DNA of 64,000 bases from Salinivirgaceae bacterium. Its GTDB lineage: Bacteria; Bacteroidota; Bacteroidia; Bacteroidales; SZUA-534. The stretch spans positions 40,755-104,754 of the forward strand of contig JAKSOL010000007.1 of the NCBI GenBank assembly GCA_024405635.1, given 5' to 3'. Below the pieces are notes generated by a model, which was not told where the DNA came from, did not search any database, and saw nothing but the letters and a program-made list of their open reading frames with translations. This document shows, in pieces, positions 4,996 through 48,045 of this stretch. The position numbers and the translations under genes are program-made. Numbering within the stretch: the first letter of the stretch is position 1; every line of letters begins with the position of its first letter.

Positions 4996-6606
<1,611 letters not shown>

Positions 6607-6629
6607 CCTTATTTTAAGTTTATTAAAAC

Positions 6630-9752: not shown

Positions 9753-12449
9753 CTAAAAGTTGTCGTACCAGCTACGGCTCTTGTTGTATTTCAAGTCTTG
9801 CAAAACGGCCGATTTTACGTTAATGCTGAAACTATAGCTTTGGCGGGCTCCAAATGGAACCAATCGAACCGAAGCAACCCAGCAGTGCAAGTCGCGCGAT
9901 ATTGACATACTTGTATGTGTGAATTGTTTTGTGTCGAAATCGAAACCTGAATTCAAACCAATTTTCCATTTTGGAGTTAGGCTTAAGTCGCCGTTAAAAC
10001 TTAATGTTTGGCTAATTTTTTGCGACAAACCTTGGTTGGTGTATGTCAGGCTATAGTTTAACGACAAGCTCCAAGGCACATTAAAGTAGTCGTACTCGCG
10101 CAATTCGTCGCTCACGCCATCGCTGTGGTCTGCATCAATGTTTTTGGTTTCTTCGTCTTTGTTCTTTTCTGCTCGTTTTTTCGCTATGTCTTTCGAATTG
10201 AATTGATAACTGGTTGATAGCGAAGCTCGTGTTATGCGGAAAGGTTTGCCAGTAACGTCGTATTCAAATTTATCGATGCGCTTGCCCAAGTCGTCAAGTG
10301 CATAAAGGTCGCCTGTTGCATTAAAGTTTACGTTCAGTGTTTTAAACAATTTTGTGCGGCCTGTCATCGATATGTTGCTCCATTTGAATTGCTCGGCTAG
10401 CATATTGTAAGAGGTTGAAAAATTCAACGCATCAAAAATTACCACTTTGCGAGTTTGTGTTATTGTGTCTTTTAAGTCGCGCACTTTCATTTCAACTCGG
10501 TTGCCTAACGAGAACGAGAACGAACTTGTTTTTCCTTTGCCCGGTACTCCGTAAACAGCGTTCTTAAATATCGAATAACGCTTGCTAATGTCGTTTGCAT
10601 AAGCAGGGCAAGGGTCGCTGCGGTAGTATCCAAATTGATTGGTGCTAAAATCGGGTTTGTAACTATACGATATGCTTGGAGTCATTACGTGGCGCAATGC
10701 CAATATCGGTCCAATTTTGTATTGGTACATGCCATACAATGTGGTATTTACGCCTAACGATACGCCATACTCGTGCAACCATTTAAACTGATTGTGTTCT
10801 ACTTCTTTGTAATGGTAGTCGTATACTTTTTTGTTTGCGCTCGATCTTGCCTCGTTGAGTGTTGAATCGACAAATACTTTTTCGGTGTATTTCCAATACC
10901 ATCGGCCTGTGTAGTTCACACCAGGCGACACACTTAGGTATTTAAGCACCTTAAACGATTTGCTTATGGTTGGTTTGTGTTGTGCTCCGTATATAAACTT
11001 GTCTTTGGTTGATGGCGCAAACAAACTATCGATGTGTGTTTTTACCGAATTTTTGAACGATCCTGAGTACGATATGCCAATGTCTTCGTACCAACGTTGT
11101 TTGCCAACTGCATTTTTACGTTTAAATGGTTGAATGCGGCGCATCGATAGCGACAAATTAGGCAGTGTTAGGCTCAAACTTGAGTCGCGTGTGTTTTGTG
11201 TGTGCAACACGTTTATTGATGCATTAAACGGCGAGTTCCAAATACTATTCATTTGGTACGATATGCTCGACGATGTGGTGTTGGTTAAGTAATCGGACGA
11301 CGATGTTGAAACCTTTTTGTTGTACTCGCTGCTCGAAAAGTTTACGTTGGCGCTAAAGGTTGTGTTTGGTCGGAATTTTGGGTCTTGTGTGTGTGTCCAA
11401 GTTAGTTTGTACGATGTTCCTTCGCTGTAGTCGCTTAAGCCTTTTTCGCCTGTTACGGTTTTGGCGTATGTAAACGACATGTTGCCCGAGAATTTGTATC
11501 TCACTTTGTATCGGGTTGTTGAAGTTGCGTTCCACGAGCCTTTTGAGTAAACGCTACCACGAACAGTAAAATCAAAGTAATCGTTAATGGCCAAATAATA
11601 ACCACCGTCTGATAGGTAGAAACCACGGTTGCGCTCTTCGCCTACACGTGGCATTATAAAGCCCGATGTTCGTTTTTTGGTAATGGGGAAGTAACCAAAC
11701 GGCAATGCCAATGGAAGCGGTATGTCGGCCATAACCATATATGCGGGTCCCGACACTATGGCTTTGTCGGGTATAACTTTTCCTTTTGTTAGCATCAGGT
11801 AAAAGTGTGGGTCTTCCAACTCGCAAGTAGTGTATTTTCCGTGCAGAATGTTAATTGAGTTGTCGGCTTCTTTTTTTGTGAGTTGGCTGTGCAAATAGCC
11901 ATCTTGTTGTTCGCTATATAGGTTTTCAATGTAGCCGCGCTGTGTGTTTACGTTGTAGGTCAGCGTTTTAGCTTTCATTTCTTCATTTCCTTGTTTAAAT
12001 ACAGGAGCGCCAGTAACGTTGCCAGTGCTATCGGCAACTCCTTCGGCATACACAATGCCTTGGTCCATATCGGCCTCAATGTATGCGGCGGTAAGGTTAA
12101 TGTCGTCAAACTGAATTTCGGCATCGCCATAAAGGTAAACCTTGCCACCATCGAGCGAAAAAATGGTAGAGTCTTTGGCTGAGGTTGAAATGGTTGATTT
12201 GAATAGCGGCTTTTTATTTTTTTGAGCAGAATCGTTGGCTGCAATAGCAGATTTGCTCGCATCATTAGCTGGTTTTGATTGAAACTCGCTGCGAGTTTCT
12301 GTCGTTGCTATGTGCGATGCAGTGTCGGCTTTTGCAGTTGTAGTGTCTGTTGCCGGTTTATTATTGTTATTTTCAGCAGTTTGTCCCGATGCACTTGTTG
12401 CGCACATCAGTAAAACCAACACCGCTGAGAATATTCCTTTTGCTTTCAA
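9753..12449 (-). CDS. large outer-membrane protein, LptD-like (putative LPS assembly protein)
   Basis: 898 aa with a signal peptide, an OstA-like N-terminal region (GKVYLYGDAEIQFDDINLTA) and a long beta-rich C-terminus ending in an aromatic residue. Confidence 0.5.
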   Translation of the reverse strand: MKAKGIFSAVLVLLMCATSASGQTAENNNNKPATDTTTAKADTASHIATTETRSEFQSKPANDASKSAIAANDSAQKNKKPLFKSTISTSAKDSTIFSLDGGKVYLYGDAEIQFDDINLTAAYIEADMDQGIVYAEGVADSTGNVTGAPVFKQGNEEMKAKTLTYNVNTQRGYIENLYSEQQDGYLHSQLTKKEADNSINILHGKYTTCELEDPHFYLMLTKGKVIPDKAIVSGPAYMVMADIPLPLALPFGYFPITKKRTSGFIMPRVGEERNRGFYLSDGGYYLAINDYFDFTVRGSVYSKGSWNATSTTRYKVRYKFSGNMSFTYAKTVTGEKGLSDYSEGTSYKLTWTHTQDPKFRPNTTFSANVNFSSSEYNKKVSTSSSDYLTNTTSSSISYQMNSIWNSPFNASINVLHTQNTRDSSLSLTLPNLSLSMRRIQPFKRKNAVGKQRWYEDIGISYSGSFKNSVKTHIDSLFAPSTKDKFIYGAQHKPTISKSFKVLKYLSVSPGVNYTGRWYWKYTEKVFVDSTLNEARSSANKKVYDYHYKEVEHNQFKWLHEYGVSLGVNTTLYGMYQYKIGPILALRHVMTPSISYSYKPDFSTNQFGYYRSDPCPAYANDISKRYSIFKNAVYGVPGKGKTSSFSFSLGNRVEMKVRDLKDTITQTRKVVIFDALNFSTSYNMLAEQFKWSNISMTGRTKLFKTLNVNFNATGDLYALDDLGKRIDKFEYDVTGKPFRITRASLSTSYQFNSKDIAKKRAEKNKDEETKNIDADHSDGVSDELREYDYFNVPWSLSLNYSLTYTNQGLSQKISQTLSFNGDLSLTPKWKIGLNSGFDFDTKQFTHTSMSISRDLHCWVASVRLVPFGARQSYSFSINVKSAVLQDLKYNKSRSWYDNF

Positions 12450-39042: not shown

Positions 39043-39077
39043 GTATTATATAATGCTCAATCTAAGACAAGTAAAAC
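39043..39077. repeat. repeat copy 1 (most degenerate, 31/35)
   Basis: GTATTATATAATGCTCAATCTAAGACAAGTAAAAC. Confidence 0.8.
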
Positions 39078-39253
39078 CATATCTACTCTTATCAACGGAA
39101 ATGGACTAAAATGATGTGGAATGTCTACTTTTGTAAAACTAAAACGCAGAAAAACAACGCCGATGTCTACTTCGGTAAATTATTAATTCAATAAAAAATT
39201 TTCTGTGTCTACTTTTTTGAGCTGGTACAAATTTTTTGGTCCAATGTTTTCAT

Positions 39254-39367
39254 TACCGTCATTTTGATATCAATTTTCGAAAAAAGTTACTGTCATTTTG
39301 AGTAGATTTTCCAATATTTTTACCGTCATTTTGAAACTAAATCATAATATTTGTACCGTCATTTTGA
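39254..39367 (+). repeat. four iteron-like copies of TAC(C/T)GTCATTTTGA at 33-34 bp spacing
   Basis: Copies start at 39254, 39288, 39321 and 39354. The last ends 19 bp before the ATG of the DUF4143 ATPase gene. Confidence 0.7.
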
Positions 39368-39385
39368 GCTCAATACTTATTTATC

Positions 39386-40732
39386 ATGGCCGAAATATAT
39401 CAAAGAGAGGCATTGCAAAGCCTCAGGGAATGGAAGGAAAAGGCTGAACGCAAACCACTTATATTAAGAGGTCCGCGTCAGGTTGGGAAAACTACACTCG
39501 TGGATATTTTCTCAAAGGATTTTGAATCGTACGTTTACCTAAACCTTGAAATCGAGGAAAACGCAAAACTATTCGATACGAGCAAAAACATAAACGAGCT
39601 AATAACCTCGATATTTTTCATTGGCGGGCAAAAGATCAACAAGACAAGCAGCCTACTTTTCATCGACGAGATACAGAACTCGGCACAGGCTGTTATGATG
39701 CTGAGATATTTCTACGAGCAGGCTCCATGGCTTTATGTAATATCAGCAGGCTCACTATTGGAAAACCTTGAAAAAAGGAATATCTCATTCCCTGTGGGCA
39801 GAGTGGAATATATGGCTTTGCGTCCATTCTCGTTCAAGGAATATGCGTGGGCAAATCTAGGCGAGGATGTCTACAACGCCATCAACTCCGTATCCATACC
39901 AGAGGCTTATCACAGCAAGCTGATAAAGGAATTCAACACATACACATTGATAGGCGGCATGCCAGAAGTGGTATCCAACTTCATAAAATACAAAGATATT
40001 CTGAAACTGAACGAGATATACGACACCCTGCTGACCGCGTATCGTGATGACATAGAGAAATACGCTCCAAGAGAGAGCATAACCAAGGCAATGCGTTACA
40101 TAATGGAACACGGTTTCCCATACGCGTCGCAGGAAATAGTATTGGGAGGCTTTGCAGGATCGGCTTACAAGTCAAGGGAAATCGGAGAGGCATTCTCGCT
40201 GCTATCAAAATCGATGCTAACAGAACTTGTGTATCCATCCACGTCAACCGAGATACCGGCTCCTCCAGATATGAAGCGCAGACCCAAACTAATGTGGCTC
40301 GATACAGGAATAGTAAACTACGCCTCTGGCCTTAGGAAAGAGATACTTGGCGCCAATGATATTCTCGACGTTTACAAAGGTAAGATTGCGGAACACATTG
40401 TAGGCCAGGAAATAATATCGACCGACAGCAGATGCTCTTTCCGAAGAAGCTACTGGGTAAGAAACAAACAAGGCTCTGACGCAGAAATGGATTTCACCTT
40501 ACAGAAAGACAACAAGATGATCCCAATAGAAGTAAAAGCAGGAACCAACGCACACTTAAAATCGCTTCACATCTATATGGAAGAATCAGATCAGAATGTA
40601 GCCATCAGAATTTGGTCGAACCCGATGCAAATAGATGACATAAAAACTCCGAAAGGCAAAACTTTCAAACTGATTAACCTGCCTTTCTACTATGTGAGCA
40701 AGATAAACGAGATTTTGGAAAAGGAGATATAA
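39386..40732 (+). CDS. AAA+ ATPase with DUF4143-type C-terminal domain
   Basis: 448 aa with Walker A GPRQVGKTT and Walker B LLFIDEIQ. Its length and architecture are typical of COG1373-like ATPases. It lies between the two degenerate repeats. Confidence 0.8.
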   Translation: MAEIYQREALQSLREWKEKAERKPLILRGPRQVGKTTLVDIFSKDFESYVYLNLEIEENAKLFDTSKNINELITSIFFIGGQKINKTSSLLFIDEIQNSAQAVMMLRYFYEQAPWLYVISAGSLLENLEKRNISFPVGRVEYMALRPFSFKEYAWANLGEDVYNAINSVSIPEAYHSKLIKEFNTYTLIGGMPEVVSNFIKYKDILKLNEIYDTLLTAYRDDIEKYAPRESITKAMRYIMEHGFPYASQEIVLGGFAGSAYKSREIGEAFSLLSKSMLTELVYPSTSTEIPAPPDMKRRPKLMWLDTGIVNYASGLRKEILGANDILDVYKGKIAEHIVGQEIISTDSRCSFRRSYWVRNKQGSDAEMDFTLQKDNKMIPIEVKAGTNAHLKSLHIYMEESDQNVAIRIWSNPMQIDDIKTPKGKTFKLINLPFYYVSKINEILEKEI

Positions 40733-40951
40733 GAAAAAAATCGGAGTTTTAGCGGAATCTATCTAAAAAGGGCACATTCCGCTAAAACTCCGAAAGGCAA
40801 ATTTTTAATTATTTATCTGATATTGTGAAAATTAGGCTATGTTCTCAGCAAAATGAGGTAGGGCGTTTTTAGGGATTTTAGGGGAAGTTCGAAAAGGTGA
40901 ATAACCTGCCTTTCTGGTATACGAGCAAGATTTATGTATCGTGATACATAA

Positions 40952-40986
40952 GTTTTACATAATGCTCAATCTAAGACAAGTAAAAC
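40952..40986. repeat. repeat copy 2 (33/35, shares the AATCTAAG variant with copy 1)
   Basis: GTTTTACATAATGCTCAATCTAAGACAAGTAAAAC. Confidence 0.95.
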
Positions 40987-41220
40987 ATAAGCCATACCCA
41001 AATCGCCTTCGTCGATTATTATATTTTTCAATTGTTCGCCTGTAATACGACGTGTTTGCAAAGTTTCCCAACCAAACGGCAGTGTGCCGTCGTTGTTGGC
41101 TTGAATGTAGTTCACAGCCTTAACATTAAGATCAGTTCTTGTTTCTGCTTCGATACAGAAGTAAACATTTTCGTCGCCTTTTATACGAAAAAAATGTCGT
41201 TGAATGTCTATTAGTTTCAT
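40966..41220 (-). CDS. hypothetical protein; last codons and stop are supplied by repeat copy 2
   Basis: 84-aa ORF. The C-terminal VLLVLD* is encoded by the reverse complement of the repeat, so the native 3' end is probably missing. Confidence 0.35.
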   Translation of the reverse strand: MKLIDIQRHFFRIKGDENVYFCIEAETRTDLNVKAVNYIQANNDGTLPFGWETLQTRRITGEQLKNIIIDEGDLGMAYVLLVLD

Positions 41221-41440
41221 AATTCTTGTTTTTATGTATTGTTTAGTTAGTTATTTGTTTATTTTTGCATCGAGTTCAGCGTCTTTATCGCTAAACAATG
41301 AATTGGCTTCCAACAGCGAGAGCAATTGTAGCTCTCCCATCGCGGATAGCCAATTTTTAATTTTACGACTATCGTAATACCACACATTGTTAGTAGCAAT
41401 AGATTGCTCTATTTTAGTACATATTTTATTGTCATTTTGA

Positions 41441-41475
41441 GTTTTACATAATGCTCAAACTCAGACAAGTAAAAC
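41441..41475. repeat. repeat copy 3 (consensus)
   Basis: Exact 35-mer. Confidence 0.95.
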
Positions 41476-41531
41476 TAATACAGAACAAGTACAACGAACT
41501 TGTTAACCGCATGCAGGCGGTGGTCTTTTAG
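41476..41531 (+). pseudogene. 3'-terminal fragment (last ~17 codons) of a HicB-like gene
   Basis: Encodes IQNKYNELVNRMQAVVF*, near-identical to the C-terminus of 43913..44308. It starts exactly at the repeat boundary. Confidence 0.8.
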
Positions 41532-41610
41532 GACTTAATCAACATTAAGGCGGTGCTGCATTCACCGCTTTTTTTTTGCTTTTAAAAAAAATTTTGTAAT
41601 TTTGTAGTGC

Positions 41611-41697
41611 TTTATAAGCATCCCTGGACTCGCTCCGAGATTGGGTTTGTGTCGAAAGGCTCATACCACCAAAGCCTAACAGTGTTAGGCTTTTTTT
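41611..41697 (+). ncRNA. candidate structured small RNA, copy A
   Basis: Upstream lie TTTG (41575-41578), an 18-nt spacer and TAATTTTG (41597-41604), which fit the Bacteroidetes -33/-7 promoter. The body contains a GAAA-tetraloop hairpin. It ends in the terminator AAAGCCTAAC-AGT-GTTAGGCTTTTTTT (41671-41697). A diverged homologous copy lies at 43741-43832 on the minus strand. Confidence 0.45.
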
Positions 41698-41927
41698 GTT
41701 AATGACGAGTTTGTTTTGATGACATTATAGCCGTCGTCAAAGTAATAATATACCTTTATTTTATCTATATGCCACAAATTGTACAATGCGTTGATAGCCT
41801 TATCTGTATCAATACCTCTTTCTAAGCATTGCAACACGATTTCAGCCTTTTGATGATTTATGGCATAACGTGCTTTTTTTTCAATATTACCAGTTCCTTT
41901 GGTTTGTTTCAAATCTGCTGGAATGCC
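41685..41927 (-). pseudogene. 3' half of a gene homologous to 43235..43734, truncated at the repeat
   Basis: The reading frame GIPADLKQTKGTGNIEKKARYA... runs right up to repeat copy 4. It aligns with ...DGIPADLKQTKGTGNIEKYARYA... of the longer copy. Confidence 0.8.
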
Positions 41928-41962
41928 GTTTTACATAATGCTCAAACTCAGACAAGTAAAAC
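41928..41962. repeat. repeat copy 4 (consensus)
   Basis: Exact 35-mer. Confidence 0.95.
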
Positions 41963-42374
41963 TTACAATACCCTTTACAGTGATGTTTTTTATGGTTGCA
42001 CCGCTCGAATACCCGAATAATCCGATACTGCGTGTTTCAGCCGAACTGTCAGCAACATTCATATTCGAAATGGTGTGGTTGTTGCCGTCAAAAACACCTT
42101 TAAACGGATTCCTTGCCTCGCCAATGCTAAACCACGGTTGATTGTTCAGGTCGATGTCCGCAATAAGTTTATAGTGCAAAGTATCAAATCCCTGTGTTCC
42201 GGCACTAACAACATACGACATAAACGCCAGTTCGTTAGCGGTTCCAATAATATATGGCGACTCTTTGCTGCCATCACCTTCTGTGAATTCTTCCATGGCG
42301 CCTTCCCATGCGTCTGCCGCATGAGTGTTAATCACCGCCAACACCATGACGATGCTAATGAATGTAATCTTTCT
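41963..42374 (-). pseudogene. internal fragment of a secreted GLUG-motif-type surface protein gene, truncated at both repeat boundaries
   Basis: The minus-strand frame begins mid-signal-peptide (RKITFISIVMVLAVINTHAADA) directly after a stop contributed by the repeat. It contains PFKGVFDGNNHTISNMNV and IGLFGYSSGATIKNITVKG and ends after about 137 codons inside repeat copy 4. Confidence 0.7.
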
Positions 42375-42409
42375 GTTTTACATAATGCTCAAACTCAGAC
42401 AAGTAAAAC
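42375..42409. repeat. repeat copy 5 (consensus)
   Basis: Exact 35-mer. Confidence 0.95.
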
Positions 42410-42604
42410 TTTTAGATGTTTCAAATCGGAGGGCGAGAATTTGCCCACCTCCGCCTTGTAAGTAACACGTGTTATTTTGCCGTTCTTTACGTAAAAAGAA
42501 ACTTTTACTACATTGCCGTTCTTTACAGCGTGAACGTGAATGGGTTTGTGTTCGCCAGAATAGAACAAAATTTTTATTCCAAGATATTCGTATATTACAG
42601 GCAT
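42395..42604 (-). CDS. DUF4160 family protein, 3' end replaced by repeat sequence
   Basis: MPVIYEYLGIKILFYSGEHKPIHVHA is typical of DUF4160. The terminal VLLV* is encoded by repeat copy 5. Confidence 0.75.
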   Translation of the reverse strand: MPVIYEYLGIKILFYSGEHKPIHVHAVKNGNVVKVSFYVKNGKITRVTYKAEVGKFSPSDLKHLKVLLV

Positions 42605-42676
42605 AAATTAAAACTCCTTATAATGATTATTTGTAATTCCCACGAAAGGCTTACTACTACTAAACGTTGCACAACA

Positions 42677-42943
42677 ATGTGCATTAACAAGATTATTGCC
42701 GATTGTAAAGCATTTAAGATTGGCAAAACTGGCGACCCTCAAAGCAGGGCGGCCAATTATGGCGATTTTGACAAAATGTATCTTTTGGTTCAAAGCAAAA
42801 ATTCGCTTCTGATTGATAGGCTTGAAGGCTACTATACCCAAAAGTATTACGGCCATAAAAAAAATATGAATATAAACAGAGGTTCTGCGGCTGTTATGGC
42901 TTCTTCTCATAGGACTTACTATTTATATATTGTTGTCAAATAG
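42677..42943 (+). CDS. hypothetical protein (88 aa)
   Basis: The start is taken at ATG 42677 (MCINKIIADCKAFKIGKTGDPQSR...). The upstream part of track ORF 42416..42943 is antisense to the DUF4160 gene. No family was recognised with confidence. Confidence 0.35.
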   Translation: MCINKIIADCKAFKIGKTGDPQSRAANYGDFDKMYLLVQSKNSLLIDRLEGYYTQKYYGHKKNMNINRGSAAVMASSHRTYYLYIVVK

Positions 42944-43192
42944 GCCATTATACATACTTAACGGATTTATGTCTGCTCCGTTGTCCCAAGTAACAATGCC
43001 GTCAACTACGCCAACTTTGGCAAATAATTCTTTGTCGATTAAGGCCTTAAAAACTGGGAAATAGCCTTTTTGTATGTTGTTTTTTAGATAGCATATTTTT
43101 TCTGTGCCATCATAAAATTGCACTTGTAAGGCATATTCGTCTATGTTATATACTTTAACCGACTTCACATCAAAAAAGGCTTTTTCCTTCAT
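42923..43192 (-). CDS. DUF2442 family protein
   Basis: 89 aa. The segment ...YALQVQFYDGTEKICYL...VDGIVTWDNGADINPLSMY is typical of DUF2442. The start codon lies only 7 nt from repeat copy 6. Confidence 0.8.
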   Translation of the reverse strand: MKEKAFFDVKSVKVYNIDEYALQVQFYDGTEKICYLKNNIQKGYFPVFKALIDKELFAKVGVVDGIVTWDNGADINPLSMYNGLFDNNI

Positions 43193-43199
43193 TGTTTTG

Positions 43200-43234
43200 G
43201 TTTTACATAATGCTCAAACTCAGACAAGTAAAAC
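43200..43234. repeat. repeat copy 6 (consensus)
   Basis: Exact 35-mer. Confidence 0.95.
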
Positions 43235-43734
43235 ACGATATTAGCAATATTAGTGAGTTGGCTGAAAATCGTGCAGAGTTCATGGCGTATGCGACAAATC
43301 CTGATTATACATCTACGTTCGACACTGGCAGCGGTGGTTTCTTGGCTAAACATAACTCACGAATACCTAACGACTCAACGTCAAAGAACGATATAGAGAA
43401 GTATGAGAAAGAAATAAGAATGTGCGATGTATTCGTAAAGGCTGGGCACAAGATTGTTTACAAAGAAGATGTCCAAGGGGAGTATGATGTGTTATTTGAC
43501 GGAATTCCAGCAGATTTGAAACAAACCAAAGGAACTGGTAATATCGAGAAATACGCAAGGTACGCCGTGAAGAGTCAGAAAGCAAAAATGGTGCTTTTTT
43601 GTTTGGAAAAGGACATAAATAGAAACAAAGCGGAGGAGGCACTAAGAGCGTTGTATATAGTAGATAAAATCAAAGTGTTGTATTATTATGAGGACAATAC
43701 GAATGTTGTTTTGTCTAATAAATCACTTCTATAA
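43235..43734 (+). CDS. hypothetical protein with possible PD-(D/E)xK-like motif (polymorphic-toxin / polyvalent-protein style)
   Basis: The frame is open from repeat copy 6, and the first internal ATG is at 43282 (MAYATNPDY...). The motif EYDVLFDGIPADLKQTKG suggests a D...D-x-K nuclease. The family assignment is tentative. Confidence 0.4.
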
Positions 43735-43740
43735 AATAGA

Positions 43741-43832
43741 AAAGCCCAACAATAACATTGTCAGGCTTTTAGTGGTACGAGTCTTTCGACACGTACCCTA
43801 TCTCGGGGCTAACCCAGGGACTGCCATTTAAG
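43741..43832 (-). ncRNA. candidate structured small RNA, copy B
   Basis: The reverse strand carries TTTG (43865-43868), an 18-nt spacer and TAATTTTG (43839-43846), the same promoter geometry as copy A. It has a 10-bp stem with a GAAA loop and a terminator hairpin (43741-43770) shared with the convergent gene. Confidence 0.45.
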
Positions 43833-43912
43833 ACACTACAAAATTACAAAATTTTTTATAAAAGCAAAAGAAAAAGCGGTGAATGCAGCACCGCCTTAAT
43901 GTTGATTAAGTC

Positions 43913-44308
43913 CTAAAAGACCACCGCCTGCATGCGGTTTACAAGTTCGTTGTACTTGTTCTGTATTATTGCTTTCTGCTTGTCCGATACTGGTACAAGT
44001 TTACGTTTGTATTTGCGCATCATTGCTGCGTTTAGACCTATTTCCTTGGCGAATGCTGTGGCGTTGATAAATGGAAATTGCTCAAAGAACCCAGATATGT
44101 CGTACACGTATTCTACTGCGATATTGTCACTATACCAATCTGGGTATTTCCCTGTTTGTTCCATGTGGTATTTGGCTTGCTCAACCATAACTTCCTCGAA
44201 GCATGTTTTAGCCTCTTGTTCTGTCATGCCACTGCCGTACACGCCTTGCGCATCGTTGGTGTAAATAGCAAAACCTCCGTCTGCGCCCCTCTCAATAACT
44301 GCTTTCAT
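43913..44308 (-). CDS. HicB-like antitoxin family protein (no hicA partner present)
   Basis: 131 aa. The N-terminus MKAVIERGADGGFAIYTNDAQGVYGSGMTEQEAKTCFEE is typical of the HicB/UPF0150 fold, and the C-terminal region is HTH-like. Confidence 0.6.
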   Translation of the reverse strand: MKAVIERGADGGFAIYTNDAQGVYGSGMTEQEAKTCFEEVMVEQAKYHMEQTGKYPDWYSDNIAVEYVYDISGFFEQFPFINATAFAKEIGLNAAMMRKYKRKLVPVSDKQKAIIQNKYNELVNRMQAVVF

Positions 44309-44393
44309 GTTCGTTTAGTTTTATCATTGTTCTTTAAAAAAAAAGTTGAACTGCCCCCCACTAAGGGGAGCAGCGTTCTACTTTAGTCCTGCG

Positions 44394-44428
44394 GTTTTAC
44401 ATAATGCTCAAACTCAGACAAGTAAAAC
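44394..44428. repeat. repeat copy 7 (consensus)
   Basis: Exact 35-mer. Confidence 0.95.
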
Positions 44429-45293
44429 GGCTAACGCTTTTTCAAAGGCAATTACCGAGCGCGAAGTCCGCAAAACCGACAAGTATGCTGCCGAGATTAA
44501 CGCCATTAAAGGCAAGTTGCTCGACTTTATCAACAAAGGCGCTGAAATTAAAGATTCGCACTTTGACAAATACAACGATATTGCTAACAAACAAGTGTTG
44601 CACCCATTTGTAAAAATTGTGCGTGCTTACATTAAGATTAACGGCAAAGAAAACGTTAAAAAGCAAGCCAACACCATTTGCACCAACATTGCAAATCTTT
44701 GCAAAGTATTGCCAGCCGATTTTGAATTTATGGCACAACTTAAAGCAATTGAAAAAAGCTTAAACAACTACATTGAGGGCAAAACAGCAACGCCTAAAAT
44801 GTTGCAAACCGAATTAAGCGGTTTAGGTCGCATTGCCGATAACGACGAAGATGCAAGCACTGCATATTTAGTTACTCTATCAAGAAAAGAAGTGTACGAA
44901 GATGGTTACAGAGATAGTGAAACATTGCTAAAATCTAACGACTACAATGCCGCTATTGCATTTTTTAATGACAAGAAAAAGCAATTGCAAAATATGGCAG
45001 AAGATGATGTTTGCGATTATGATTTAACTATGTGGGTAGGCGACTATGAGGATATTGTAGAAGAAGAATTTGCAGATTTTATAGGAGAACCAACCGATGG
45101 TTATGCGGTTTTAATTAAAGACAGCCATGGTTACTTAATAGAAAATGGCGATGGAAAAACCGAAAGGGATTTTGTGCTCGAAGATTGTAAGGTAAAATTA
45201 GTTAAGAAAGACGAATTAACAGACGAAATACAAATTAGTTTTGGATTTCCAAAACGATGGGTAAAATTAGGTTTAATACCTTCAAGATTATAA
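44429..45293 (+). pseudogene. 5'-truncated ORF of unknown function (mobile-element-like)
   Basis: The frame is open from repeat copy 7 for 100 codons before the first ATG. Track ORF 44346..45293 reads through the repeat (VLHNAQTQTSKT). It shares a YI-x-x-x-TATP motif with the N-terminal part of 45929..46789. Confidence 0.55.
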
Positions 45294-45309
45294 GATATAA
45301 CTAACAACA

Positions 45310-45340
45310 AAAAAGCCGCGCTTAAAGGCGTGGCTTTTTT
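45310..45340 (+). terminator. rho-independent terminator
   Basis: AAAAAGCCGCGC-TTAAA-GGCGTGGCTTTTTT. Confidence 0.7.
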
Positions 45341-45426
45341 ACTTTGACAAGGCAAAGTACCTTGATGGCGCAGGGGCGTTAATCAATATTTCAGCCTAAC
45401 GACAACGTCCGAAACGTATTCCCTGA

Positions 45427-45948
45427 TTGTCCGATGCAAGTATAAGGAAAAAATATATACACAAACAAGATATGCGAGAAAAAATAATAGAATATATCAA
45501 AAAGGCGTGGAACGGCGAAAAATGCAGCAGATTGCTGGATATAACCAGTGCAATTGACATACAAGCACTGGAAGTTGCAAATAGTATAATTGATAAATTA
45601 AACGAAATACAAGATAGAGAAAAATACGACCACATTAAAAAAGTTAAAATATATGCAGTCGATTTTGATCACACAAAAGAAAGACATTTTGGTGCAAATG
45701 AAACAAGGACAGACCAAATACCTTTAACATTTGATGATATACCTTTGTTAGTCGATACTTTATTGTCGCCGCAATTGGTAAGATTAGGAACATTACGCCA
45801 AGATACAGGAGCAGGAATACACTTTATTAGCCAGTTGGATAATGGTAAAATGATTTGCGTACTAATAAAAGTTAAGCCGCAAAAAGAAACTTATAAAAAT
45901 AGAACAATATATAAAAAGAAATTAAAAGATGGAAGCAAGAATAGTTGA
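45427..45948 (+). CDS. PBECR-like (Barnase/EndoU/ColicinE5-RelE-like) nuclease domain protein
   Basis: The motif DFDHTKERHFGANETRTDQIPLTFDDIPLLVDTLLSP resembles the H-x3-RH ... pit-x-eDi pattern of polyvalent-protein nuclease domains. The likely start is ATG 45472. Confidence 0.45.
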   Translation: MSDASIRKKYIHKQDMREKIIEYIKKAWNGEKCSRLLDITSAIDIQALEVANSIIDKLNEIQDREKYDHIKKVKIYAVDFDHTKERHFGANETRTDQIPLTFDDIPLLVDTLLSPQLVRLGTLRQDTGAGIHFISQLDNGKMICVLIKVKPQKETYKNRTIYKKKLKDGSKNS

Positions 45949-46789
45949 TTTTTATATGGTAGAAAACACCAATAAGGACAAACGCCTACGCTTAATGAAA
46001 ATGAAAGCGCTTGCACTGGCTGAACCGCTTGACGGTTTAGCCACAACCAAGTGTGCTAACAATCAACCTGCCGATATTGTTAATCGATATTTGGATTTAC
46101 TCGATAAGCCAACACGCGCCGCCGCAATGGGCGTTTTGTCGTCGGTTGAGCGCTTTATTGAGCAAGCCGATAATAATTACCCTTATATGGCTGAATTTGC
46201 GGCTATGGCTGTAAGTTTGAGCGATTATATTAACGAAGAAACGGCAACACCACAAATTGCAGCCATCGACCTTAATAACATTCATAAAATATCAGGCGTT
46301 AATGTTGATAATAGCGAATTAAAAGGCATTGTAAGTAGTAAAACGCTGCTTGCTCATCAGTTTGAGCCGCTGAACTTTGGTGGTAAGTGGAAACTGTTAT
46401 TTGGTCGCCCAACCGCGCCTTTTAAGGTAATGGTACACGGAGCGCCCGGAAATGGCAAATCAACTTTTGCTATACAATTCGCTAAATACCTTGCCAGCAG
46501 CCACAAGTTGCGTGTATTGTATATTGCTAATGAAGAGAGTTTTACATACACCTTTCAGGAGAAACTTATGCGCCTGAACGCAATAGACGACAACCTGAAA
46601 ATAGCCGATTCGCTACCTGATAACTTTGACGATTATGATGTAGCGTTTTTCGATTCAGTAAACACAATGAAACTCGATATTGACGATTTACGACGAATAT
46701 TCAAACAAAACGACAAAACTTCGTTTGTGTTGATTTTTCAAAACAACAAGAAAGGTCAATTTAGGGGTTCGCTTGAGTGTTTTACATAA
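45929..46789 (+). CDS. RecA-like/AAA ATPase (phage or plasmid type), 3' end cut by repeat
   Basis: Walker A is HGAPGNGKST and Walker B-like is YDVAFFDS. The ORF ends ...GSLECFT* with the last codons and the stop inside repeat copy 8. Confidence 0.55.
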   Translation: MEARIVDFYMVENTNKDKRLRLMKMKALALAEPLDGLATTKCANNQPADIVNRYLDLLDKPTRAAAMGVLSSVERFIEQADNNYPYMAEFAAMAVSLSDYINEETATPQIAAIDLNNIHKISGVNVDNSELKGIVSSKTLLAHQFEPLNFGGKWKLLFGRPTAPFKVMVHGAPGNGKSTFAIQFAKYLASSHKLRVLYIANEESFTYTFQEKLMRLNAIDDNLKIADSLPDNFDDYDVAFFDSVNTMKLDIDDLRRIFKQNDKTSFVLIFQNNKKGQFRGSLECFT

Positions 46790-46813
46790 TGCTCAAACTC
46801 AGACAAGTAAAAC
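46779..46813. repeat. repeat copy 8 (consensus, cas2-proximal)
   Basis: Exact 35-mer, 50 bp from the cas2 stop codon. Confidence 0.95.
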
Positions 46814-46863
46814 AGACTATTGGCTAATTTATTGAATAAGAGTATACTATCATTGGTTTGCTG

Positions 46864-47184
46864 TTAAAAAAAATCAATCAAATCGGGCTTTTTTAGCAAA
46901 ATCTCGTCATTTTTTCGTTTCTGTTTTCGTCCAAAATAATGGTAAGAAGCTTCGTTGTGTTTGTCATCTACCACTACTACACTTATTTGGCATTTGCCGC
47001 AAATAGCTTCCATTATTCGCTTTTTATGAACTAATGCGTTGGCCATAGAGTAACAATACCGTATATATAGATTGGAGTATAACTTATTGAATCCGTCCTT
47101 CTCTAGTTGACGCGAAAAATTCTTTTTACATTCCTTGCCTGTTGATGTGCGGTTGGAAATGTTCATAAAAACGTAAATCCACAT
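46864..47184 (-). CDS. cas2: CRISPR-associated endoribonuclease Cas2 (type II-like)
   Basis: 106 aa. MWIYVF.N...........F...L.KDGF......LY.RYC aligns with my recollection of type II-C Cas2. It lies immediately downstream of cas1 (3-nt gap). Confidence 0.8.
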   Translation of the reverse strand: MWIYVFMNISNRTSTGKECKKNFSRQLEKDGFNKLYSNLYIRYCYSMANALVHKKRIMEAICGKCQISVVVVDDKHNEASYHYFGRKQKRKNDEILLKKPDLIDFF

Positions 47185-47187
47185 AAC

Positions 47188-48045
47188 TTAAAACAATGAA
47201 GGGTAATATATTACACGTCGCTCACCTAAGTAAATCTGCGATAGCGAATAAGTTGTTTGTGACACATCGTCGGGTTTTATTGACTCGTAGAATAGCTCCA
47301 AAATGGCTTTTTTGAAGTTGTGGTCAATGCATCTTTGGCCGATGGTGTATAGTTCAAGCACTTTTTCGTCAACAAATGGTCGATATGGTTCCATAACATC
47401 GTCGCTCAACGGAAAGGAGTTGTATCGGTTTTTATGAAAAACACCAATCATTGGCAATAAACCTGAATTCATTAGCGCACGCGATACTACCGACCGCAAA
47501 ATGGCATATCCGTAGTTTAGCATATCGTTGGGACAATTGCCGTAACGGTCGCGTATAAAATCTTTGCCTAGCAAAAGTTTCCAATATGTTGCGGCTGCCA
47601 AAGCCTCGCGATTTGTTGTGTCGCCACTTTTAACATTCTTATGGTACTTGCTCAACACATCTTCTCCCTTGCCCAATTTTTGTAGCAATAGCGACTGGTT
47701 GTGTATCTTATGTTCTATTATCTGTTTCCAGATTTGTTTTCTAACGGGTTCTGTTGTCGCTAACTGCGCGTTAAAGGTCATTGTTTGCCGTACGTTTGAC
47801 TCTAAGTCTAAAGTCATGCTTACGGGCATGTGGCGCTCGTCGCAAAAAACTATGCTTATGTTGTTTTGAGACAACTTGTTAAGCAGTGGCACAGTGATGC
47901 GTACCGAATGGTTATCGACTAAAATACCCGACACGTCCTCTAACGAACGCATGATTGGGTCTTTATCTTCTTGACAAATTAAAAGCTGCCCATCTTTCAA
48001 CGATAGATCGGCTTTGTTTTCAAATACAAGTGTTTGTTTTGGCAT
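47188..48045 (-). CDS. cas1: CRISPR-associated endonuclease Cas1 (type II subtype)
   Basis: 285 aa, collinear with type II Cas1: IVFCDERHMP, NREALAAATYW, LNYGYAILRS, GVFHKNRYNSFPLSDDVMEPYRPFVD. The catalytic E, H and D/E positions are retained. Confidence 0.9.
   Translation of the reverse strand: MPKQTLVFENKADLSLKDGQLLICQEDKDPIMRSLEDVSGILVDNHSVRITVPLLNKLSQNNISIVFCDERHMPVSMTLDLESNVRQTMTFNAQLATTEPVRKQIWKQIIEHKIHNQSLLLQKLGKGEDVLSKYHKNVKSGDTTNREALAAATYWKLLLGKDFIRDRYGNCPNDMLNYGYAILRSVVSRALMNSGLLPMIGVFHKNRYNSFPLSDDVMEPYRPFVDEKVLELYTIGQRCIDHNFKKAILELFYESIKPDDVSQTTYSLSQIYLGERRVIYYPSLF

Follow-up and report, generated by a model that had tools for sequence, protein, structure and literature searches.

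The window, by which we mean the whole 64-kb stretch of DNA analyzed (64,000 nucleotides), carries at 39043–48045 the genes cas1 and cas2 and, beside them, an array of long units lying between eight copies of a 35-nt direct repeat; the segments distinguished in a preliminary description of this DNA are these units. A search with the repeat returned seven matches at three or fewer mismatches, against none expected, plus one degenerate copy. Read from the cas end, the features of the locus are:

47188–48045, minus strand: cas1, type II family, of a Cas9-less clade (PF01867, E = 1e-30)
46864–47184, minus strand: cas2, divergent, 106 aa (weak TIGR01573 match, 17 bits, below the cutoff)
46814–46863, minus strand: leader-like stretch of 50 bp between cas2 and repeat R1
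46779–46813, minus strand: R1, the cas-proximal repeat, reading GTTTTACTTGTCTGAGTTTGAGCATTATGTAAAAC in the cas direction
44429–46778: unit S7, 2350 bp, nearest to the cas genes, three ORFs
43235–44393: unit S6, 1159 bp, the long member of an inverted pair
44378–44392, minus strand: 3′ remnant of hicA in S6 (AGLK-stop), four codons left, cut by the unit edge at 44393
43913–44308, minus strand: complete HicB-like antitoxin ORF in S6 (ORF and profile searches, phage-contig relative)
43735–43850, minus strand: small-RNA-like region in S6, predicted by fold comparison, ending in a terminator hairpin (43770–43740)
43501–43968, plus strand: part of S6 that matches S3 in pairwise alignment
42410–43199: unit S5, 790 bp, with DUF4160, a small ORF and DUF2442
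41963–42374: unit S4, 412 bp, an internal gene fragment (phrog_30905)
41476–41927: unit S3, 452 bp, the short, inverted member of the pair
40987–41440: unit S2, 454 bp, of which a diverged relative with other bounds is the first unit of strain L014
40952–40986, minus strand: repeat R7, whose two mismatches are the ancestral CTTAGATTG state, as in the repeats of the relative L001
39078–40951: unit S1, 1874 bp, predicted to be the oldest, with a complete AAA_14/DUF4143 ATPase gene
39043–39077, minus strand: repeat R8, terminal and degenerate, with four mismatches, all in its outer half

Repeats identical to R1 lie at 44394–44428, 43200–43234, 42375–42409, 41928–41962, and 41441–41475, and the termini of the array repeats are inverted (GTTTTAC/GTAAAAC). 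The order of the units in the window rests on the assembly of a metagenome-assembled genome (MAG).

The cas genes and the search for an effector

Cas1 matched TIGR03639 (cas1_NMENI) with 284 bits against a cutoff of 120, and its catalytic E/H/E residues (E147, H204, and E219) are invariant in an alignment of 37 sequences of the clade. Cas2 aligns with the Cas2 proteins of canonical II-C loci and is without the N-terminal ~10 aa and the Asp of the FDLP motif. The dN/dS ratios, 0.066 for cas1 (measured against L001) and 0.076 for cas2, show at the level of sequence comparison that both genes are under purifying selection. L014 and L015 have exactly the same leader-like 50 bp, which L001 conserves in part.

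Neither cas9 nor any other effector was found in the 64-kb window, in which no ORF near cas1 exceeds 900 aa and all large ORFs are housekeeping genes; a Cas9-sized ORF was also absent from nine related loci with 10 kb visible on either side. A search of the window for a tracrRNA-like anti-repeat gave nothing above background, the best repeat-like matches outside the array scoring 14–16 and shuffled repeats 12–17. Scans with Pfam, NCBIfam, and PHROG identified no recombinase gene among the array ORFs.

Content and boundaries of the units

Genes run in mixed orientation across the units, and many are incomplete. In S7, the unit edge leaves the first ORF open, and the last encodes an ATPase cut C-terminally, which matches phrog_6891 at profile positions 13–159 of 310 and AAA_24 in part. 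The ORF at 43192–43734 in S6 matches phrog_23416 only at positions 270–391 of 459, and the hicA remnant of the same unit was recognized by comparison with L010, where HicA ends in ...QAGLK 50–68 bp upstream of hicB. The start codon of DUF2442 lies 7 nt from the edge of S5, and S4 is one open frame from end to end (137 stop-free codons), with a signal peptide that is without its start. To judge from this gene content, the units are arbitrary pieces of phage- or MGE-like DNA with genes cut at the unit edges.

An IMG/VR phage contig encodes, beside hicA and an integrase, a protein with 64% identity to the HicB-like one of S6; no other query found a phage contig. The array as a blastn query matched none of 50,697 phage or 72,556 plasmid records, IMG/VR did not contain an exact 26-mer taken from the conserved pair arm, and back-translated queries of the polyvalent-protein fragment and the ATPase had no IMG/VR relative. 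A protein search with the 165-aa fragment matched only itself, in a Salinivirgaceae MAG; none of the phage, plasmid, IMG/VR, and protein collections yielded the source element of the pair. The GC content of the units (35–44%) is not distinguishable from that of the flanks, and their tetranucleotide distance is marginally over the flank maximum (0.212 vs. 0.207).

Terminal inverted repeats are absent from the units, and no consensus emerged from the 8 nt at either end of ~45 units in a search for a unit-end motif or PAM. Two independent cut positions carry the string GTATTA (S3 at its end, and the L014 unit at its start, in S2 context); it is absent from every other unit end and was therefore treated as coincidence. 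Inspection by eye found no conserved Bacteroidetes-type promoter motif among the different repeat sequences.

The inverted pair

The preliminary description presented 41476–41927 as the reverse complement of 43501–43968, the latter within 43235–44393, and pairwise local alignment bore this out over the whole 452 bp of S3. The alignment has 478 columns with 75% identity (blastn E = 2e-87), and the two copies are 1.6 kb apart at one locus. Divergence is strongly non-uniform, uniformity being the pattern that the description had named as contrary to its reading: identities per 60-column block are 53, 35, 34, 32, 44, 47, and 58 of 60, and 57 of 58 in the last, which gives a mosaic of 97–98%, ~55%, ~75%, and 97%, with both ends at 97–98% around a middle of ~55%. 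The near-identical flanks and diverged middle reported earlier are thus real, and the flank strings quoted for them (GGCATTCC... and GGAATTCC...) and the single base change between the two HicB tails are correct. Arms of 118–120 nt are 93–97% identical. The near-identity of the ends could in part reflect gene conversion between the two units.

The middle of the pair is the 3′ end of a protein gene, of which the last 77–80 codons are colinear, with the reading frame intact in both copies and no internal frameshift. Forty-eight of 80 encoded residues are identical, in line with the earlier estimate of about half, and pS is 0.74 vs. a pN of 0.28 (dN/dS ~0.12), a sign of purifying selection. Since a truncated, non-functional fragment decaying in situ could not diverge in this selected manner, the copies diverged within their source elements; the pattern of substitutions implies that the gene diverged while it was working, before capture and not in situ.

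All the other features that had been listed (the HicB end, the terminators, and a structured RNA, next to the 3′ half of the ORF) were located in the pair. The first terminator hairpin lies at 43740–43770 with its counterpart at 41671–41693, and the second at 43873–43897 with its counterpart at 41547–41571. The small structured region between them retains its folds in both copies, with two compensatory pairs, and Rfam held no family matching either this putative small RNA or the array repeats. The matched stretch of S6 includes the final 56 nt of the HicB-like ORF (43913–44308, minus strand). S3 accordingly reads: HicB tail (41476–41531, plus strand), terminator (41547–41571), small-RNA-like region, terminator (41671–41693), and ORF 3′ end (41685–41927, minus strand).

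Recurrence and growth of long-unit arrays

The same layout occurs in nine independent Bacteroidales metagenome arrays, each with a different repeat sequence, which hold 50 units of 187–5223 bp (median ~620 bp). All nine adjoin one contiguous Cas1 group, Cas9-less, in an unbootstrapped NJ ordering. In the neighboring Cas1 groups (~70 loci), a Cas9-sized ORF (900–1,560 codons), scored wherever upstream sequence sufficed, mostly ends at cas1, and every array found has a spacing of 65–79 bp (spacers of 29–32 bp). The Cas1 clade holds more than 100 clusters at 52–95% identity, from rumen, gut, and bioreactor samples; its repeats co-vary with Cas1, and its arrays retain perfect repeats. The array is upstream of cas1 at five loci and downstream of cas2 at four with the repeat orientation constant, so the leader logic is not canonical. 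At one locus, L017, cas1-cas2 is located between two repeats. A long 'array' at L070 was rejected as a member of the family, being a palindromic REP-like element.

Related units lie inside one array, in either orientation, in four of the nine arrays; together with the L014 relative of S2, this agrees with the earlier proposal that one invader family was sampled repeatedly, as in CRISPR arrays. In the other arrays, many units have no closed frame at either edge. The two units of L096 nearest to the cas genes lie within a phage DNA polymerase A gene of 1947 bp and a tape-measure gene of 4.8 kb, and some units elsewhere carry chromosomal-looking genes (CstA, SDR, AraC).

The six cas-proximal repeats of the window share two derived substitutions, the two distal copies having the state of L001; the repeats of L096 show the same derived/ancestral pattern, and terminal distal repeat copies are degenerate. 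L014 is identical to the window in Cas1, flanks, leader, and first repeat and differs in its first unit, a mosaic, differently bounded relative of S2. These comparisons indicate that arrays would grow at the cas-proximal end with repeat duplication.

Discussion

The stretch 39043–48045 is probably a CRISPR-like locus composed of a II-C-derived cas1-cas2 and a 35-nt-repeat array of long fragments, and the inverted pair probably represents two independent captures. The preliminary description had likewise proposed independent captures from related but distinct elements; the non-uniform divergence, the purifying selection, and the placement of the copies in two different units, each arbitrarily bounded in its own way and flanked by identical direct repeats, argue for it. 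From the association of the genes with the arrays, we infer that Cas1-Cas2 performs the insertion and acts on long DNA. The integrase would insert long double-stranded invader fragments at the cas-proximal repeat and duplicate that repeat each time, with no sequence-specific ends, in either orientation, and without need of Cas9. On this model, 41476–41927 would be the older entry and 43235–44393 the later one, both taken from the same region of two related, distinct elements, in which the 3′ end of a polyvalent-protein-like gene would be followed by a terminator, the small RNA, a second terminator, and hicB-hicA.

It is rather unlikely that the locus is a functionless relic, namely a II-C module that lost Cas9 and then length control, occasionally takes up random long inserts with no readout, and holds the pair as a reflection of DNA abundance. 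That no effector and no tracrRNA lie in the window, that terminators occur within units, some of which look chromosomal, and that Cas2 is without conserved N-terminal features would fit such a history. Against this, the Cas1 clade is large and diverse (>100 clusters), the catalytic residues are invariant, dN/dS is ~0.07 on both cas genes, and perfect repeats are kept that co-vary with Cas1, all of which indicates maintained activity. Independent capture of the pair is compatible with a relic as well.

An integron-like cassette array, with the repeats as recombination sites and the units kept for their gene products (toxin-antitoxin, ATPases), is very improbable. Some units do carry complete cassette-type genes (HicB, DUF4160/DUF2442, AAA ATPase), but genes are cut at most unit edges, some units come from the interior of phage polymerase or tape-measure genes or consist of one frame with neither start nor stop, gene orientation is mixed, no tyrosine recombinase was found in the locus, and cas1-cas2 are the only conserved neighbors.

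Slighter still is the chance of an old local inverted duplication of part of 43235–44393 that diverged in place, perhaps with gene conversion at the ends. The copies are close together at the same locus, and conversion could explain ends that are 97–98% identical; however, the middle diverged at dN/dS ~0.12 with the frame undisturbed, and with the gene truncated in both copies no selection on it was possible in situ. Moreover, the short copy is exactly one unit between intact direct repeats, which a segmental duplication would not create, and related, differently bounded units occur between strains and in other arrays. The in-frame divergence and the unit bounds thus uphold the earlier statement that a simple local duplication would not give this pattern. 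We give just as little weight to an assembly artefact in which the shared 35-nt repeats led two strain variants of one unit to be joined: the assembly is a MAG, and in relatives (L014, L011, L005) the contig often ends at the array, but the same architecture is found in many independent assemblies, the repeat is shorter than the reads and the final assembly k-mers, and the copies differ in end points and in orientation relative to the repeats and are therefore not allelic. Least probable is that the pair forms the arms of one invertible segment (a phase-variable switch or shufflon), a possibility that the preliminary description had named against itself: arms of 118–120 nt at 93–97% identity could drive homologous inversion of the intervening 2.25 kb, but no invertase or recombinase gene was identified in the array or among the flanking ORFs scanned, the interval holds three repeat copies, all direct, and two unrelated units, the arms run on into diverged sequence with no defined end sites, and other arrays show related units in direct orientation, so that nothing supports inversion.

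Returning to capture by Cas1-Cas2, the locus resembles the adaptation module of Bacteroidales type II-C systems in its TIGR03639 Cas1, its Cas2 partner, its 35–36-nt direct repeats with inverted termini, and its array beside the cas genes with cas-proximal growth, a degenerate terminal repeat, and phage/MGE-derived content. It differs from them in having no Cas9 and no tracrRNA-like anti-repeat in the 64-kb window, inserts of 187–5223 bp vs. a uniform ~30 bp, a Cas2 without the N-terminal segment and conserved Asp, arrays that are sometimes upstream of cas1, and repeat termini of GTTTTA...AAAAC vs. GTTGTG...ACAAC. Near-identical short direct repeats (23–55 nt class) with a degenerate terminal copy are those of CRISPR arrays in general; uniform short spacers (~26–72 bp) are not present, the units of the window being 412–2350 bp long.

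Casposons carry Cas1 inside the mobile unit together with terminal inverted repeats and a family B polymerase. The present locus shares with them a Cas1-family integrase tied to kilobase DNA inserts with direct target duplication; unlike in casposons, the integrase of the window lies outside the inserts, the units have neither terminal inverted repeats nor a polymerase gene, the 35-nt array repeat is a target reused repeatedly, and Cas1 is a derived type II protein, not a casposase. In integrons, the units are whole ORFs that share one orientation and mostly have no promoter. Ordered gene-sized units between short repeats, growth at one end by an integrase gene, and some toxin-antitoxin-type genes recall integrons, whereas the locus has no detectable IntI tyrosine recombinase and no attC structure, cut genes in mixed orientation, and 35-nt identical repeats vs. 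imperfect palindromes of 60–140 nt. By analogy, the array may also be likened to animal piRNA clusters as an archive of MGE fragments in both orientations with several diverged fragments per family; no small-RNA pathway or Argonaute is linked to it, and the likeness is limited to archive architecture.

Spacer length in CRISPR systems normally stays in a narrow range, which Cas1-Cas2 is believed to set as a molecular ruler, and the presumed role of adaptation modules is to serve an effector. It is quite possible, although we propose it tentatively, that a widespread Bacteroidales II-C-derived Cas1-Cas2 without Cas9 and length ruler archives phage/MGE fragments of 0.2–5 kb and is selected through a readout unlike that of known CRISPR types. 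Candidates for such a readout would be long antisense or sense transcripts, homology-dependent interference, or the neutralizing of invader addiction or regulatory modules. As to what the archive is for, our preferred guess, a more doubtful one, is an invader memory read either without a dedicated Cas effector (for example by homology or through antisense transcripts) or by an effector encoded at another site; chief among the alternatives is an integrase kept by selection whose archive is never read out. A single transcript along the whole array is made less likely by the strong bidirectional terminators within units, and the case for a readout of memory through RNA is weakened accordingly.

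The wider Cas9-less long-unit system appears to be undescribed; the searchable full-text literature gave no account of kilobase spacers or Cas9-less long-unit arrays, which does not by itself prove novelty. Standard CRISPR finders cap spacer length, so arrays of this kind would be systematically missed. If the interpretation is correct, a natural Cas1-Cas2 can place kilobase DNA at a defined 35-nt site, which would be relevant to how casposons and CRISPR are linked in evolution and to tools that write or record DNA. It would also mean that an adaptation module can persist under purifying selection without a linked effector, raising the question of the purpose of a long-fragment archive. The pair serves as an internal control, its signature of selection pointing to sampling from evolving elements and not to local duplication; if the array is indeed an archive, the pair would document directly that one evolving invader family was met twice in succession.

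An inverted pair of units with conserved ends and a diverged centre

The unit at 41476-41927 (452 bp) aligned over its entire length, as the reverse complement, to 43501-43968 within the longer unit 43235-44393 (478 columns, 75% identity by local alignment; E = 2e-87 by blastn of one unit against the other). Identity was highly uneven lengthwise, with 53, 35, 34, 32, 44, 47, and 58 matches in successive 60-column blocks and 57 of 58 in the last, which puts both ends at 97-98% and the centre at about 55%. The preliminary description had reported this inverted relationship, the near-identical flanks around a diverged middle, the content of the match, and a single-base difference in the HicB tail, all of which the alignment bore out.

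Features present in both copies of the pair (window coordinates)
ORF 3' end, final 77-80 codons
43740-43770 and 41671-41693, first terminator hairpin
Small structured region between the terminators, predicted helices kept despite two double-sided changes
43873-43897 and 41547-41571, second terminator
HicB-like ORF, final 56 nt, one position differing between the copies

The coding part of the pair is colinear, with 48 of 80 residues identical, and the only length difference is three additional C-terminal residues in the short copy. Synonymous divergence is near saturation (pS 0.74), and non-synonymous changes are few (pN 0.28), giving a dN/dS of about 0.12. Because the gene is truncated in both units, the selection on it cannot have acted inside the array; judging from the substitution pattern, the divergence of the two sequences must predate capture, at a time when each was part of a working gene in one of two related elements. 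Two captures from related but distinct elements had been proposed, a reading at odds with uniform divergence, and the non-uniform divergence upholds it. No source element was found for either member of the pair. The alternative that the two copies are arms of a single invertible element found no support: no recombinase gene was identified in the array or among those flanking ORFs scanned, the arms are separated by two unrelated units and by three copies of the repeat, all direct, and analogous pairs in other arrays sit in direct orientation.

Under the two-capture reading, the conserved flanks around a replaced gene end are ordinary mobile-element mosaicism, and the same pattern was seen in a third capture at L014, a related Cas1 locus from a different metagenome. 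Its Cas1 protein is identical to that of the window, and its flanking genes, leader, and first repeat are the same; its first unit is unlike that of the window. The visible 144 bp of this unit align to window positions 41374-41231, starting 66 bp from the edge of the window unit, with 75% identity over the first 60 bp and 98% thereafter. The first unit of L014 is an independent capture, with boundaries of its own, of a sequence related to window unit 40987-41440.

The array adjoins cas1 and cas2

The window lies on a contig of a MAG. The units are separated from one another by a 35-nt direct repeat, GTTTTACATAATGCTCAAACTCAGACAAGTAAAAC (plus strand), whose termini are inverted (GTTTTAC and GTAAAAC) and of which no copy is expected by chance in the window.

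Features of the array and its adaptation genes (window coordinates)
39043, degenerate repeat copy
40952, repeat copy with two mismatches
41441, 41928, 42375, 43200, 44394, and 46779, starts of six identical repeat copies
46864-47184, minus strand, divergent cas2, 106 aa
47188-48045, minus strand, cas1, 285 aa, TIGR03639 (type II Cas1 model) 284 bits against a cutoff of 120

The inter-repeat units measure 1874, 454, 452, 412, 790, 1159, and 2350 bp, and the two minus-strand genes lie fifty bases past repeat copy 46779. Genes for Vut_1, QueC, QueF, and a Na/Pi transporter follow past cas1, PurU is on the far side of the array, and the large ORFs throughout the 64-kb window are all housekeeping genes (LptD, RecG, AlaRS, DsbD, RNase G, and others). 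The locus consists of cas1, cas2, and the array only, without Cas9 or a detectable tracrRNA, since no effector gene was found in the 64-kb window, no repeat-like anti-repeat match exceeded shuffled controls, and no Rfam family matched the repeats or the small RNA.

Two derived substitutions (CTGAGTTTG) are common to the six repeats nearest cas, and the two distal ones retain CTTAGATTG, the state of the array at L001, a closely related locus; such a pattern is expected if a cas-proximal repeat mutated and was then duplicated again and again. The repeats of L096, another related locus, are likewise derived proximally and ancestral distally. Degenerate copies were detected in six arrays (window, L001, L012, L016, L096, and L100), always in the outermost position.

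Units are arbitrary pieces of foreign DNA

Integron-like gene capture is unlikely; the window units are arbitrary pieces of foreign DNA rather than cassettes. Unit 43235-44393 starts within an ORF whose match to the 459-position phage protein family profile phrog_23416 is confined to positions 270-391, and the unit ends four codons ahead of the hicA stop (44378-44392, minus strand, reads AGLK-stop). On an IMG/VR phage contig, hicA (ending QAGLK) is followed by hicB, an integrase, and head and portal genes, and that hicB is 64% identical to the window protein. In unit 41963-42374, a single reading frame stays open across the whole unit and includes a signal peptide whose start is missing, and unit 44429-46778 begins in an open frame and breaks off within an ATPase whose match to a 310-position phage profile spans positions 13-159. 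Gene orientation in the window units is mixed, and the unit ends compared have no common motif.

The two cas-proximal units of L096 are likewise internal pieces of genes found in Bacteroides phages: one, of 397 bp, falls within a 1947-bp DNA polymerase A gene of Bacuni_F1, the other within a 4.8-kb tape-measure gene of BS-TP2. Units at three loci encode LPD3 polyvalent-protein domains, an L007 unit encodes a HicB-like protein, and other units encode phrog_23416 again, a CdiA_C-like domain, and a DNA methylase with Vsr. A few units carry chromosomal-looking genes, such as a fragment of CstA and an AraC-type regulator together with an SDR (short-chain dehydrogenase), at L003:11863-14115 and L017:11403-13617. 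Capture may therefore not be confined to mobile elements, or the intervals concerned may be native DNA bracketed by stray repeats.

Related sequence occurs in two units of one array in four of nine arrays: the window, L007 (70-75% nucleotide identity, both units keeping a small membrane protein ORF), L096 (162 nt at 91%), and L100 (63 nt at 87%). These arrays therefore have as a general property that they sample one element family more than once, as the preliminary description had proposed for the window. Separately, about 170 nt of L017 between cas2 and the downstream repeat (L017:11198-11367) are 78% identical, in inverted orientation, to L096:7696-7871 within an L096 unit; thus, the same foreign sequence family occurs in arrays of different genomes.

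Some loci also carry local duplications. At L017 (9846-13752), cas1-cas2 is flanked by two array repeats (9846 and 11368), and an exact second copy of the 100 bp that separate repeat 9846 from the cas1 side is found behind the last repeat (13618), where IS66-like genes come next. The array thus looks as if it had its own adaptation genes as one of its units, or else repeat plus leader was duplicated on both sides of them. At L096, a repeat plus about 91 nt of leader-like sequence, as found from the last repeat to cas1, is duplicated at 98% inside the array (6482-6609 and 9847-9974), and a 76-nt palindromic MITE-like element follows the duplicate and recurs at 433 and 2277, which suggests rearrangements where repeat and leader join. 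In the oldest unit of the window, four tandem copies of about 33 nt, ending ...AC(C/T)GTCATTTTGA, lie at 39246-39367 upstream of an AAA_14/DUF4143 ATPase gene; a similar 29-mer (41412-41440) closes unit 40987-41440, abutting the repeat. Partial duplication is also seen at 40643-40931, where the ATPase ORF ends and in the stretch downstream (40671-40704 and 40898-40931 at 85%; 40643-40665 and 40784-40806 at 91%) around a perfect 18-nt inverted repeat at 40741-40793. ATPase genes of ATPase_2, AAA_14, DUF4143, or DUF234 type recur at or near the cas-distal end of several loci (L013:11444-12760, L096:653-2065, and window 39386-40732); chance, an early capture that the loci have in common, or an accessory role of the gene could account for this.

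A Cas9-less family of Cas1 loci

Cas1 relatives were gathered from GTDB genomes, ENA, Logan, JGI, NCBI assemblies, and a metagenome scan, and about 100 loci were surveyed automatically; together with an NJ ordering that was not bootstrapped, the survey gave two kinds of locus. In the group of the window (window, L001-L003, L005-L009, L011-L019, and L096-L101), Cas1 is 47-100% identical to that of the window, and a Cas9-sized ORF never lies beside cas1; the lone large upstream ORF, at L005, is PurL. All arrays seen in this group have 34-36-nt repeats that start G(T/A)TT(T/A)A in the cas direction, set hundreds to thousands of bases apart; nine of these arrays, no two with the same repeat sequence, together hold 50 units that are complete, ranging from 187 to 5223 bp around a median of about 620 bp. 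In the neighbouring groups (about 70 loci), most loci with sufficient upstream sequence carry a Cas9-sized ORF of 900-1,560 codons that ends at the cas1 start, and arrays are canonical, with a spacing of 65-66 or 76-79 bp.

The adaptation genes of the Cas9-less group are maintained: the Cas1 catalytic residues E147, H204, and E219 are invariant in the group alignment, and purifying selection between the window and L001 is strong (dN/dS 0.066 for cas1 and 0.076 for cas2). Compared with the canonical II-C Cas2 of Cas9-bearing Bacteroidales loci, Cas2 throughout the Cas9-less clade (window and L001-L017) is shorter by ~10 residues at the N-terminus and does not have the aspartate conserved in FDLP, a divergence that may be linked to loss of spacer-length control. 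The housekeeping genes flanking the modules differ from genome to genome. Five loci have the array upstream of cas1 and four have it downstream of cas2, the repeats being oriented alike, and therefore the leader logic is unlike that of canonical arrays.

Mechanism and use of the archive

The best-supported reading is long-fragment insertion by this Cas1-Cas2. The complex of the Cas9-less clade would insert long DNA fragments at the cas-proximal repeat, which would be duplicated each time, with ends that are not sequence-specific and no preferred orientation. The architecture, the exclusive tie to one Cas1 clade, the conserved catalytic residues, the polarity, the strain turnover, and the fragmentary foreign content can be read from the sequences; the integration chemistry we infer from what is established for Cas1-Cas2. 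Strong internal terminators argue against a single long precursor transcript of the array. A limited search of the open-access full-text literature returned no description of such arrays.

The locus has no linked effector within 64 kb. That the integrase is maintained while the archive has no readout is a real possibility, though less than an even chance. We consider it slightly more likely, if still short of even, that the archive serves as a functional memory, either independent of an effector or read by an effector acting in trans.
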